Assembly (NCBI GenBank): GCA_038064935.1
Contig: JBBTRZ010000010.1
Span: 1 to 37,750, forward strand
Direction of reading: 5' to 3'
DNA: 37,750 nucleotides
DNA from: Patescibacteria group bacterium
Lineage (GTDB): Bacteria > Patescibacteriota > Minisyncoccia > Phycocordibacterales > JACOZG01
Below, piece by piece: positions 88 through 12,049 of the stretch (the first letter of the stretch is position 1; each line of letters begins with the position of its first letter). The notes under the pieces were generated by a model. The model was not told where the DNA came from. It worked only from the letters and a program-made list of their open reading frames with translations, and did not search any database. The position numbers were made by a program, and so were the translations under genes.

Positions 88-115
88 TCGTTAACAAAGG
101 TAATCTAAAAATATT

Positions 116-175
116 ATGCTTGATAATTGGAAACGGATAATTCGGTCGGGGTTCGTTAATTTCTGGTGTCACTAG
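116..175 (+). pseudogene. Duplicated 5' end of ftsX, forming a 19-aa mini-ORF (MLDNWKRIIRSGFVNFWCH)
   Basis: First 17 codons encode the same peptide as ftsX 754-804; 47/51 nt identical and all 4 differences are synonymous. Confidence 0.85.
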
Positions 176-188
176 GGGGAGTTTTTGT

Positions 189-578
189 ATGCAAAAAGAT
201 TTTCAGAAGTGGCATAGGAAAAAGGAGTCAATCAATAATTTTTCTAAACCGCCGTTTTTTCATGAACGAGAAATTTGGTGGTGTAAAATTGGTGTAAATA
301 TTGGATTTGAGCAGGACGGCGGCGGTGAAGATTTTTTGCGACCAGTGATTGTGTTTAGAAAATTCAACAACGAAATTTTTTGGGCTATTCCACTTACTCA
401 CACCCGAAAGAAAACAAAATACTATTTTGAATTCGTCCTTGGTCAAAAGATTTCAAGCGTGGCTATTTTGTCGCAAATACGACTTATTGATGCTCGTCGT
501 TTGAGTCACAAGCTGGGTGATTTACGCGAGGTTGATTTCCTAGAATTAACAAAGCGGTTCAAGGCACTTTTACCTTGA
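189..578 (+). CDS. PemK/MazF-family endoribonuclease toxin (orphan)
   Basis: EIWW..G.N.G.EQ.G....RPV motif, AIPLT and SQIR.ID..RL are typical PemK/MazF signatures; GGGAG SD upstream. Confidence 0.88.
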   Translation: MQKDFQKWHRKKESINNFSKPPFFHEREIWWCKIGVNIGFEQDGGGEDFLRPVIVFRKFNNEIFWAIPLTHTRKKTKYYFEFVLGQKISSVAILSQIRLIDARRLSHKLGDLREVDFLELTKRFKALLP

Positions 579-634
579 ACCGCTTTGTTTTATTACCTCC
601 ACCTTTCGGCGGAGTCGGGCCGAAGCCATTTGTA
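548..634 (-). ncRNA. Candidate antisense sRNA overlapping the pemK 3' end
   Basis: Minus-strand promoter TTGACT(667-662)-16 nt-TATACT(645-640); small hairpins GGC-UUCG-GCC and CUCCGCC-GAAA-GGUGGAG; perfect 17-bp hairpin at 548-589. Confidence 0.5.
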
Positions 635-753
635 CTCCAAGTATAATCACCGGTGTTAATAAGTCAAGTGGTTGGGTTAATGATCCCGTGCTATAGTTTC
701 CATGTCTGATTAAAAACCAAATCCTCTCCACCTTCAAGTTCACAAAATAAATC

Positions 754-1668
754 ATGCTCGATAATTGGAAACGGATAATTCGGTCGGGGTTCGTCAACTT
801 TTGGCGAAGTGGCGTGGTGTCACTCTCTTCAGTTATTGTCCTCACGGTGACTCTGTTCGTGATTGGTAGCTTGATTTTAGCCCAAGCCTTTCTTGCCGCC
901 TCCCTTGAGGAGATTAAAGCTAAAGTGGATATTAGTGTTTCCTTCCAACCCGACGCAACCGAAGAAGAAGTGCTGGCTTTCAAACAGGATTTGCTTTCGT
1001 TGCCGGAAGTGGCAGAGGTGATCTATCGGTCGCGAGACCAAGAATATAACGATTTCAAAGCGCGGAACCAAGACAACGACCTCATCATGCGATCGCTCGA
1101 AGAGGTTGGCAATCCCTTCATGGCGCGGCTCAACATCACGGCGACCGACCCCTCACAGTATGAAAACATTGCCGCCTTCCTCCAAAGTGAGAGCGCTCTC
1201 GTGGCCGGCGGCCGCAACATTATTTATCAAGTCAATTTCAAGAAAGCGAGTGTTGACGCTCTTTCGACTATCATCATCGCAACCCAACGCGTGAGCTTCG
1301 CCCTTGCCCTTCTCGCTGTCTTCGTCTCCTTGATCGTCACTTTCAACACCATCTCGCTCACGATTTACATTTCCCGCGAAGAAATTTCGGTGATGCGATT
1401 GGTTGGAGCCGATAATCGTTATATTCGCGGACCCTTCATTGTGGAGGGGATTATTGCCGGCTTCTTCGCCGCCTGGCTTGCCCTTGCCCTCCTGTATCCC
1501 TCCGCGATCTGGGTGAAAAACGCGACCAGCGGCATTAGCGGGAGTCTCAATCTGGCCACCTACTATCTCGATCATTTCACTTCGCTCGCCTTAACCCTCC
1601 TACTCGCCGGTCTCTTCGTGAGCACCCTAGCAAGCGTGCTTGCGATTCGAAAACATCTCCGAATTTAA
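754..1668 (+). CDS. ftsX: Cell division permease-like protein FtsX
   Basis: N-terminal TM, extracellular loop, REEI.VMRLVGA...IRGPFIVEG motif, three C-terminal TMs. Confidence 0.9.
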   Translation: MLDNWKRIIRSGFVNFWRSGVVSLSSVIVLTVTLFVIGSLILAQAFLAASLEEIKAKVDISVSFQPDATEEEVLAFKQDLLSLPEVAEVIYRSRDQEYNDFKARNQDNDLIMRSLEEVGNPFMARLNITATDPSQYENIAAFLQSESALVAGGRNIIYQVNFKKASVDALSTIIIATQRVSFALALLAVFVSLIVTFNTISLTIYISREEISVMRLVGADNRYIRGPFIVEGIIAGFFAAWLALALLYPSAIWVKNATSGISGSLNLATYYLDHFTSLALTLLLAGLFVSTLASVLAIRKHLRI

Positions 1669-11426: not shown

Positions 11427-11771
11427 TTAGTCGGTAATGCCGAAAACGATCTTTAAATTTTCGACGACTTCTTTTTGGATATTTGGTCCAACCCGCCCCA
11501 ATTTGCCGAGAATTATTTTCTTGTTTATGGCAGCCATTTTTCGCAATCTGATAACCGAGTCAATCTTCAAACCAGTTTTCTCAAATTCGGGGGACGATTT
11601 TTTGATCAAAATATCAACTTGATCTCGGTAAATTAATTGTGAAGAAATAAACGCCACAATCACATCATCATCTTTTAGCTCGGACGATAATATCACGGCT
11701 GGCCTCACCTTTTCCCCCGACAGATCGGTGAAGGGGAAGACGGTCAGAACGATTTCCCACTTTTTATACAT
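11427..11771 (-). CDS. PemK/MazF-family toxin
   Basis: IVL..FPFTD.SG.K.RPAVILS, TGL..DSVIR. Confidence 0.9.
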   Translation of the reverse strand: MYKKWEIVLTVFPFTDLSGEKVRPAVILSSELKDDDVIVAFISSQLIYRDQVDILIKKSSPEFEKTGLKIDSVIRLRKMAAINKKIILGKLGRVGPNIQKEVVENLKIVFGITD

Positions 11772-11772
11772 G

Positions 11773-12015
11773 CTATTTCTTCAAATCGTCAACAGAATAC
11801 AATTCTGGCTCGTCTTTAAGGAAATCAAAGCCACCGGCATTGGCTACGAAGTTAGTCCATTCATCCAATTCCCGGTTTAAATAATCTGGGTATTTTATCA
11901 TCAGGACTTCTGGTCGATTATGCCGACCGATACCTAAGGTTAAATTGTTTTCCCTGACAGATGCGACAAACCGGCCCAATTGCTGTCGCGCGATAGTGGT
12001 GCTGACAATCTTCAT
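11773..12015 (-). CDS. Phd/YefM-like antitoxin
   Basis: MKIVSTT.AR..L...V..V......I.R..RP.V.M resembles the Phd N-terminus; acidic C-tail; directly upstream of the toxin. Confidence 0.7.
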   Translation of the reverse strand: MKIVSTTIARQQLGRFVASVRENNLTLGIGRHNRPEVLMIKYPDYLNRELDEWTNFVANAGGFDFLKDEPELYSVDDLKK

Positions 12016-12021
12016 GGGATG

Positions 12022-12049
12022 ATTGTACCTTTTGTACATTTATTGTCAA
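12022..12049 (-). promoter_or_regulatory. TA promoter with overlapping TGTAC-N5-GTACA operator
   Basis: TTGACA-16 nt-TACAAT, ATG 6 nt later; palindrome at 12024-12038. Confidence 0.7.

Follow-up and report, generated by a model that had tools for sequence, protein, structure and literature searches.

A MazF-family toxin gene with a convergent, conserved small-RNA gene in Patescibacteria: a candidate RNA-antitoxin cassette

The stretch of DNA analysed here, called the window throughout, comprises 37,750 nucleotides (nt) at the start of contig JBBTRZ010000010.1 (C10) in the 640-kb genome of a Patescibacteria group bacterium that was assembled into 40 contigs (GCA_038064935.1). Near its left end lies a gene for a MazF/PemK-family toxin, and facing it on the opposite strand is a predicted small-RNA gene whose terminator hairpin covers the end of the toxin gene. 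These two genes form the cassette studied here. The promoter, start and end positions given for the small RNA are predictions throughout. The features of the cassette are as follows.

189..578, plus strand: toxin gene, coding for a MazF/PemK-family endoribonuclease of 129 amino acids (aa) with an N-terminal extension of ~22 residues (predicted helix 5-16)
541..633, minus strand: predicted small RNA, starting at 633 with its 3′ end at ~548-541, 86-93 nt long; 65.9 bits with the covariance model R1 described below
662..667, minus strand: −35 hexamer TTGACT of the small-RNA promoter, with a 16-nt spacer to the −10 hexamer
640..645, minus strand: −10 hexamer TATACT, 6 nt ahead of the predicted start
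618..627, minus strand: hairpin B, GGC-UUCG-GCC, 6 nt from the RNA 5′ end
597..614, minus strand: hairpin A, CUCCGCC-GAAA-GGUGGAG, a 7-bp stem with one G.U pair that is an A.C mismatch on the plus strand
548..589, both strands: 17-bp hairpin over the toxin stop codon, a predicted shared two-way intrinsic terminator

The open reading frame (ORF) 189-578 matched Pfam PF02452 (PemK_toxin) over residues 27-127 (E 8.3e-10, 39.3 bits against a cut-off of 23.1), and NCBIfam returned a sub-threshold MazF match and nothing else. When the profile of the toxin family was compared with solved structures, MazF/EndoA of B. subtilis (4mdx, E 2.2e-9) and the MazF proteins of B. anthracis and S. aureus were the best relatives, with E values of ~2e-9. 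The AlphaFold2 model of the toxin (predicted local distance difference test, pLDDT, 85.7) has the SH3-like barrel of the MazF/Kid/CcdB type and an additional N-terminal helix at residues 5-16, and the top Foldseek matches of this model were all MazF (E 8e-7 to 5e-5, template modelling (TM) scores 0.6-0.79). In an alignment of 38 sequences W8, G35, N37, G39, E41, G44, R51-P52, Q96 and R104 were invariant; E41, Q42, G44 and P68-L-T/S70 were conserved, and R51 aligned with the RPV of 4mdx. The roles of the catalytic Arg (G-x-E-Q-x-G...R-P) and of the Thr/Ser (P-L-T) come from work on the MazF proteins of B. subtilis and E. coli. By sequence and modelled fold, the product of 189-578 is a true MazF-family protein that is presumably toxic.

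MazF and PemK are textbook type II toxins which, to our knowledge, have always been described with a protein antidote. Neither side of 189-578 has an antitoxin-like ORF, and PADLOC gave no match at this locus. A homologue scan with one genome per species returned 513 toxin relatives, the best 80 of which were fetched; nearly all of these 80 belong to metagenome-assembled genomes of Patescibacteria, one being labelled Omnitrophota and one Alphaproteobacteria. The loci are related to one another and all counts across them overstate their independence. The toxins of the 84 loci compared are 46-74% identical, and the genes upstream of them are unrelated housekeeping genes (rpoD-, mreB-, pheS-, atpG-, pyrG-, polA-, ftsE-, rpoB- and rpsI-like ends) that often stop between −4 and +16 nt from the toxin start, with no small ORF recurring among them. 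The description of the toxin as an orphan, made in a first-pass annotation of this DNA, was thus upheld. Type II MazEF and PemIK toxins share its fold and the positions of its Arg-Pro and Thr/Ser, whereas the extra N-terminal helix and the RNA-gene partner set the present family apart, as does the lack of a MazE/PemI-type gene beside the toxin in all 84 loci.

Neither a promoter nor a good ribosome-binding site was conserved for the toxin gene across loci. Most toxin starts (45 nt upstream inspected, L006-L085) were without a Shine-Dalgarno sequence; in many genes a TATAAT-like box precedes the ATG by 6-10 nt, and others begin within a few nt of the upstream stop codon. This suggests that the toxin mRNAs are leaderless, or are translated in coupling with the upstream gene, and are weakly expressed.

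The gene facing the toxin is differently equipped. The minus-strand promoter TTGACT-16-TATACT, which had been claimed earlier, is present and is the best of six promoter-like sites in 1-1200 (10/12 matches; shuffled sequences gave 2.0 ± 1.7 sites). Downstream of it the predicted RNA reads, in minus-strand order, ACAAAUGG, CUUCGG-CC, CGA, CUCCGCC-GAAA-GGUGGAG, an A-rich spacer, the 17-bp hairpin and UUAAUUCU; its 5′ end is thus ACAAAUGG, followed by a cUUCGg hairpin and then by a GNRA-capped one. A 90-nt minus-strand RNA folds into exactly three hairpins with a minimum free energy (MFE) of −47.9 kcal/mol (z −8.8), and the plus strand of the same 90 nt reaches −39.5 kcal/mol (z −7.0). The first-pass annotation had foreseen an RNA of ~90 nt with UUCG and GAAA hairpins, both loops being of the stable classes on the minus strand; the fold agrees with this on each count, and the related loci described below carry a convergent element of ~80-90 nt. 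The perfect 17-bp hairpin proposed over the last toxin codons and the stop is exact as well: the inverted repeat 548-564/573-589 is 17 nt long, 100% complementary with an 8-nt loop, and contains TGA 576-578 together with the last toxin codons. Beyond it the plus strand reads UUUGUUUUAUUA, a good terminator for the toxin mRNA. An Rfam covariance scan of 1-1200 with E up to 10 gave chance matches to microRNAs and small RNAs on the plus strand, far below gathering scores.

Comparison of the regions downstream of orphan PemK homologues, which had been proposed as a check, found the element conserved in nearly all related loci. A 16-nt core, GGCCGAAGCC[AG]TTT[GA]T, with at most 3 substitutions, is located 23-57 nt past the toxin stop in 77 of 80 loci, a few of them with frame problems, and the remaining three carry a variant hairpin B followed by CATTTGT. 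As MAFFT and RNAalifold on a 105-nt alignment recovered only hairpin B and 4 terminator pairs, we built the covariance model R1 (42 positions, 10 pairs) from the 26 gap-free sequences among 84. R1 gave a single match in each of 82 of 85 sources, invariably where it was expected and on the strand that does not code for the toxin; the three misses were the C29 copy and the distant C26 paralogue of the same genome and locus L072. The promoter is conserved along with the RNA. Among the 82 loci with complete flanks, at least 4/6 consensus positions were matched by the −35 hexamer in 71 (TTGACT in 31, TTGACA in 31) and by the −10 hexamer in 75 (TATACT in 29), the spacer was 16 or 17 nt in 70, a TG extended the −10 in 46, and the end of the −10 stood 6 nt from a conserved A (+1) in 62. 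The predicted RNA has a median length of 80 nt over 84 loci (10th-90th percentile 71-88), and its 5′ domain is the most conserved part, with A1, A3-A5, G7-C9 and G14-C16 each at 90% or above.

In the alignment fitted to R1, which by its construction favours pairing, 99.6% of cells pair as compared with 82.8% after shuffling and 42-56% with a slid partner, and both-sided changes occur in 8 of the 10 model pairs, including all 7 pairs of hairpin A. The middle pair of hairpin B is GC in 76 loci, CG in 2, AU in 1 and UA in 1. Transitions out of Watson-Crick pairing in hairpin A comprise 15 G.T against 2 A.C, which indicates that the G.U pair forms on the minus strand only. The loops of hairpin A are GNRA in at least 41 of the 84 loci; the counts for this hairpin are lower bounds, the finder having chosen another hairpin in ~20 of the 84 rows. 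The minus strand folds better than the plus strand in 63 of the 84 loci and worse in 18. As layout and covariation are conserved in 82 of the 85 sources, the arrangement of promoter and hairpins in the window is beyond chance, and the element, on this comparative evidence, is a conserved structured RNA gene on the minus strand that is presumably transcribed.

The hairpin at the end of the toxin gene is part of the same conserved layout. It spans the toxin stop codon in 66 of the 84 loci; in most of the remainder it falls within the last codons, just short of the stop. Terminators across loci were sought by a custom scan for hairpins and U tracts in place of the standard terminator scan; among 73 hairpins of at least 8 bp, a U tract was present in the RNA sense in 71, in the mRNA sense in 61 and in both in 59. 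Read in the RNA sense, 20 loci have a GNRA terminator loop; read in the mRNA sense, none has. With conserved hairpins bearing U tracts both ways, the C-terminal codons of the toxin appear to double as a two-way terminator. Because this hairpin is common to both transcripts, their 3′ ends would be perfectly complementary, with a predicted overlap in the window of ~548-589 plus the tracts, ~40 nt in all.

The element is found with this toxin family and has spread with it. Further toxin copies in the genome are C13:533-916, C29:11071-11448, C39:164-502, which an internal TAG makes a pseudogene, and a distant paralogue on C26; an element of this kind lies 3′ of the C13, C29 and C39 copies, and the layout is common to all three full-length paralogues of the genome. 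In its own genome R1 matched only beside the toxin copies on C10, C39 and C13, apart from two noise matches (E 1.9 and 7.9). The toxin subfamily (E up to 1e-10) is present in 15 of 150 other sampled Patescibacteria genomes, some of which hold 3-5 copies. With strict filters R1 recovered the RNA in 2 of the 150 genomes; run unfiltered, it did so in 4 of 11 distant toxin loci. When these 11 loci were read by eye, 10 had a convergent two-hairpin element, 9 of them with recognisable hexamers. R1 is therefore too narrow for distant members. A dispersed, RPE-like palindromic repeat was ruled out as a description of the element, R1 copies occurring only beside toxin paralogues. Exact copies of the 16-nt motif in viral contigs (18 matches) were set aside as chance, none of the 18 having a toxin gene or the surrounding layout.

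Some individual copies deserve mention. The C39 pseudogene (L003; C39:1-700) stands 11 nt after ftsE at a contig end, and its place in the chromosome is probably just upstream of the window start. It retains the RNA body (29.9 bits), and its −35 hexamer has decayed from TTGACT to GTAGCT. In another genome (L037) the cassette likewise follows an ftsE-like gene. The distant MazF paralogue at C26:18405-18680 (L005) has no N-terminal extension, shows the canonical layout with a small overlapping ORF upstream, and is without the small-RNA element.

Homologues of the toxin were also found outside the phylum. By tblastn they occur on 16 plasmid records (Campylobacter 7, Helicobacter 7, Nitratiruptor 2) and on 7 Campylobacter phage or prophage records. 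Four such loci were inspected by eye: each homologue is extended at its N terminus and lacks an annotated antitoxin, and each gene has a GC-rich hairpin at its stop codon and is faced by a convergent −10 box. In Nitratiruptor the RNA region, again by eye, starts AUAAAU and continues with two hairpins. At the Nitratiruptor plasmid locus (L122) a 62-aa ORF at 1655-1843, 73 nt past the toxin homologue, looks ribbon-helix-helix-like by eye; its start overlaps the expected region of the convergent RNA promoter, and its product could be an antitoxin or else a regulator of the plasmid. In the Campylobacter prophage CJIE4-3 (L124) the toxin homologue at 1180-1614 sits between terminase and portal genes; it is faced by a convergent TATAAT box, and a hairpin covers its stop codon.

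One of these four is the homologue on plasmid pVir of C. jejuni 81-176 (34.8% identity over 88%, E 4e-10), whose record has no other gene annotated as a toxin. Like the toxin of the window it has an N-terminal extension and no annotated antitoxin, and by eye it is faced by a convergent TTGATT-17-TATAAT promoter with a GC-rich hairpin at the stop codon. The layout is common to both whereas the sequence of the RNA region is not, the ACAAAUGG-cUUCGg motif being absent from pVir, and the host replicon is a plasmid of Campylobacterota rather than a chromosome of Patescibacteria. This MazF-like homologue may be CjpT. The cjrA/cjpT pair of pVir was reportedly described by Shen et al. in 2016, Mol Microbiol 101:909. 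Passages of PMC10470494 and PMC7826846 class the antisense RNA CjrA of this plasmid as a type I antitoxin, and cjrA is not in the supplements of the latter. As those passages present it, the pair has an antisense small RNA as antitoxin to a protein toxin, which is also what we propose for the present cassette. Our literature search found no report on Patescibacteria in which a small-RNA gene converges on that of a MazF/PemK toxin.

Taking these results together, we consider it likely that toxin gene 189-578 and the convergent structured small-RNA gene form one cassette in which the RNA would act as the antitoxin and neutralise the toxin. For its mode of action we favour antisense pairing of the type I kind, by analogy and at close to an even chance. 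The toxin gene would usually ride on the upstream housekeeping gene, and the RNA gene would be driven by its own strong, near-consensus sigma-70 promoter; as no toxin promoter is conserved in comparison, the RNA would be expected in excess. It would pair with the 3′ end of the toxin mRNA, the first contact being made at the terminator loops, and RNase III, which is encoded in this genome, would then cleave the duplex. The mRNA would thereby lose its stop codon and its protective 3′ hairpin, and toxin synthesis would stop.

This scheme has precedents. In 3′-overlapping type I pairs of B. subtilis, according to the sections of PMC6562991 that treat them, contact begins at the terminator loop and RNase III cuts the duplex, once near the stop codon. 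Convergent genes with RNAs that pair at their 3′ ends are likewise the arrangement of txpA/RatA, bsrG/SR4, bsrE/SR5 and yonT/SR6 of B. subtilis and of par (fst/RNAII) of Enterococcus. The par locus of Enterococcus has a shared two-way terminator. The opposite-strand RNA gene overlapping the toxin mRNA that characterises type I systems is also present here as a prediction, resting on the conserved promoter and the stop-codon hairpin. The small hydrophobic toxin that is typical of type I, if not strictly defining for it, was not found: the toxins of those 3′-overlapping pairs are small hydrophobic membrane peptides, whereas the present one is a 129-aa soluble MazF nuclease. A further difference is that the RNA of the present cassette is best conserved in its non-overlapping 5′ domain.

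A number of observations weigh against antisense pairing or against the RNA gene as drawn. Conservation of the RNA is highest in nt 1-40, which the predicted overlap with the toxin mRNA does not reach, and this is left unexplained by antisense pairing. No extra complementarity was detected between the 5′ domain and the toxin mRNA or its start region (own −27.7, crossed −27.5, shuffled −27.8 kcal/mol). Hairpin A itself is the terminator in several distant loci, where the overlap shrinks to ~20 nt, and L096, one of the 11 sampled distant loci, is without the element. In the window, the U tract of the small RNA (UUAAUUCU) is weak and the standard terminator scan of 1-1200 found 0 sites, the latter because the U tract begins within the long stem. 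Counted over whole MFE folds, G.U makes up 60 of 999 pairs on the minus strand and 101 of 1083 on the plus strand, which is the opposite direction to hairpin A and which we attribute to the U-rich tract of the plus strand. The pairing bias of the R1-fitted alignment belongs on the same side.

As the best-conserved domain has neither an overlap nor a target in the toxin mRNA, direct action on the protein is a serious alternative, even if we hold it to be unlikely on balance. The RNA would then bind the toxin in a type III-like manner, instead of or besides antisense pairing: its single-stranded, invariant 5′-ACAAAU, held by two capped hairpins, would occupy the RNA groove of MazF as a substrate mimic. 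MazF enzymes bind short single strands of the ACA type, and RNA inhibitors are known for nucleases of related fold (ToxN). The 5′ domain is the best conserved although the toxins have diverged to the extent given above, and distant members retain it despite a minimal overlap. The resemblance to ACA is, however, no more than a lead, a 5′ hairpin could also be conserved for RNA stability alone, and for direct binding by itself the strictly convergent, overlapping position would be unnecessary. A hybrid of types I and III, operating in the candidate phyla radiation (CPR) and in Campylobacterota, may also be envisaged, doubtful as we consider it: the RNA would be an uncleavable substrate mimic and would exert antisense control through the shared terminator as well. 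Its 5′ end, presented by the cUUCGg and GNRA hairpins and starting exactly at ACA, would then be without the nucleotide upstream of the usual cut.

The likeness to the type III systems ToxIN, AbiQ and CptIN goes as far as an endoribonuclease toxin with an RNA proposed to counter it. The toxin of the window had no ToxN family match in Pfam, and every top structural match was MazF. Type III antitoxins consist of multiple tandem repeats of RNA, in the part of PMC8860590 that deals with them. As depicted there the repeats lie upstream of the toxin on the same strand, in contrast to the single-copy, downstream and convergent RNA of the cassette; no tandem repeat array is present in 1-1200. The analogy with ToxN drawn in the first-pass annotation was therefore not borne out as family membership, the fold being that of MazF and the RNA single-copy and convergent.

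It is improbable, in our judgement, that the small RNA is real and serves some purpose other than that of an antitoxin, either as a transcriptional insulator or terminator shielding downstream housekeeping genes or as another kind of regulator. What restrains the toxin would in that case be its weak leaderless expression, its own N-terminal extension or a protein from another locus. The scarcity of Shine-Dalgarno sequences and the −10 boxes close to the ATG agree with this, as do the family-specific N-terminal helix, to which no role is assigned, and the ribbon-helix-helix-like small ORF behind the Nitratiruptor homologue. Against it stand the occurrence of the RNA gene only beside this toxin family and the lack of any recurrent protein partner among the 84 loci; an insulator, moreover, needs neither a consensus promoter, a fixed start nor two covarying capped hairpins. 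A rival protein antitoxin within the window had been named at 11773-12015. The ORF exists, but it runs 11773-12039 on the minus strand and is paired with a MazF of its own:

11427-11771, minus strand: second MazF in the window, 114 aa (PemK_toxin, E 1e-12)
11773-12039, minus strand: Phd/YefM-like antitoxin gene, 88 aa, below the Pfam cut-off (E 1e-4), ending 1 nt before the 11427-11771 gene

By its gene content and order, 11427-12039 is a canonical type II pair.

The cassette is also flanked by repeated sequence, which raises the question of whether the element acts as DNA.

107..166, plus strand: duplicate of the ftsX 5′ end at the left flank of the cassette, with a truncated 19-codon ftsX′ at 116-175
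745..804, plus strand: right-flank copy of the repeat, at the true ftsX start (754-1668; Pfam FtsX_ECD, FtsX)

These copies form a direct repeat of 60 nt with 88% identity. Exact direct repeats of 13-42 nt flank the cassette in 13 of 79 loci (e.g. L085, L061, L020, L041, L015 and L072), the mean after shuffling being 7.4, and the repeat is often the 3′ end of the upstream gene. From these sequences, it looks like the cassette integrates through short homology. On this ground one could imagine that the element is where a mobile cassette recombines or inserts, in the way of the attC of integrons, and that its promoter hexamers are incidental; the cassettes occupy many different housekeeping loci, and G.T pairs are tolerated in folded single-stranded DNA too. 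We nevertheless regard this as very improbable, as the conservation of the −35, the spacer, the extended −10 and the 6 nt to +1 is of the kind expected for a promoter, the hairpins have U tracts, and UUCG and GNRA loops are motifs of RNA stability; in addition, no integrase or transposase lies within the cassette, and the flanking repeats, which are of varying length, fall outside the element. That the 17-bp hairpin is a plain toxin terminator and the remainder a chance resemblance would suit the good plus-strand terminator with UUUGUUUUAUUA, and is contradicted so plainly by the layout and covariation in the 82 sources that we give it next to no credence.

On this evidence a whole MazF subfamily is tied not to a protein antidote but to a conserved gene for a small RNA, for which promoter, start, fold and terminator can be predicted. 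This offers an explanation for many annotations of 'orphan' MazF and a candidate for a new RNA family, absent from Rfam. It would further connect orphan MazF genes with the single published case in Campylobacter, provided that the pVir homologue is CjpT. The cassettes of Patescibacteria are a large new branch of a kind of system that is probably already known, if barely described. Should the RNA inhibit the enzyme directly, the best-studied toxin family would include a hybrid of types I and III, and with ~570 bp the cassette is a compact system in which to ask whether an RNA can inhibit a MazF enzyme in this way. It also illustrates how, in minimal genomes, such cassettes come to lie at the 3′ ends of essential genes.

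In the metagenome runs that contain the window, a 68-nt contig over 1-53 has a depth of 47-78 as compared with ~10-14 for the contigs over the rest. Positions 1-53 are thus probably a repeat, which would be the reason why the contig ends there. In the same runs, separate short contigs match only ~593-635, where the RNA 5′ domain lies, and run on into different sequence, which points to other copies of the element in the same community.

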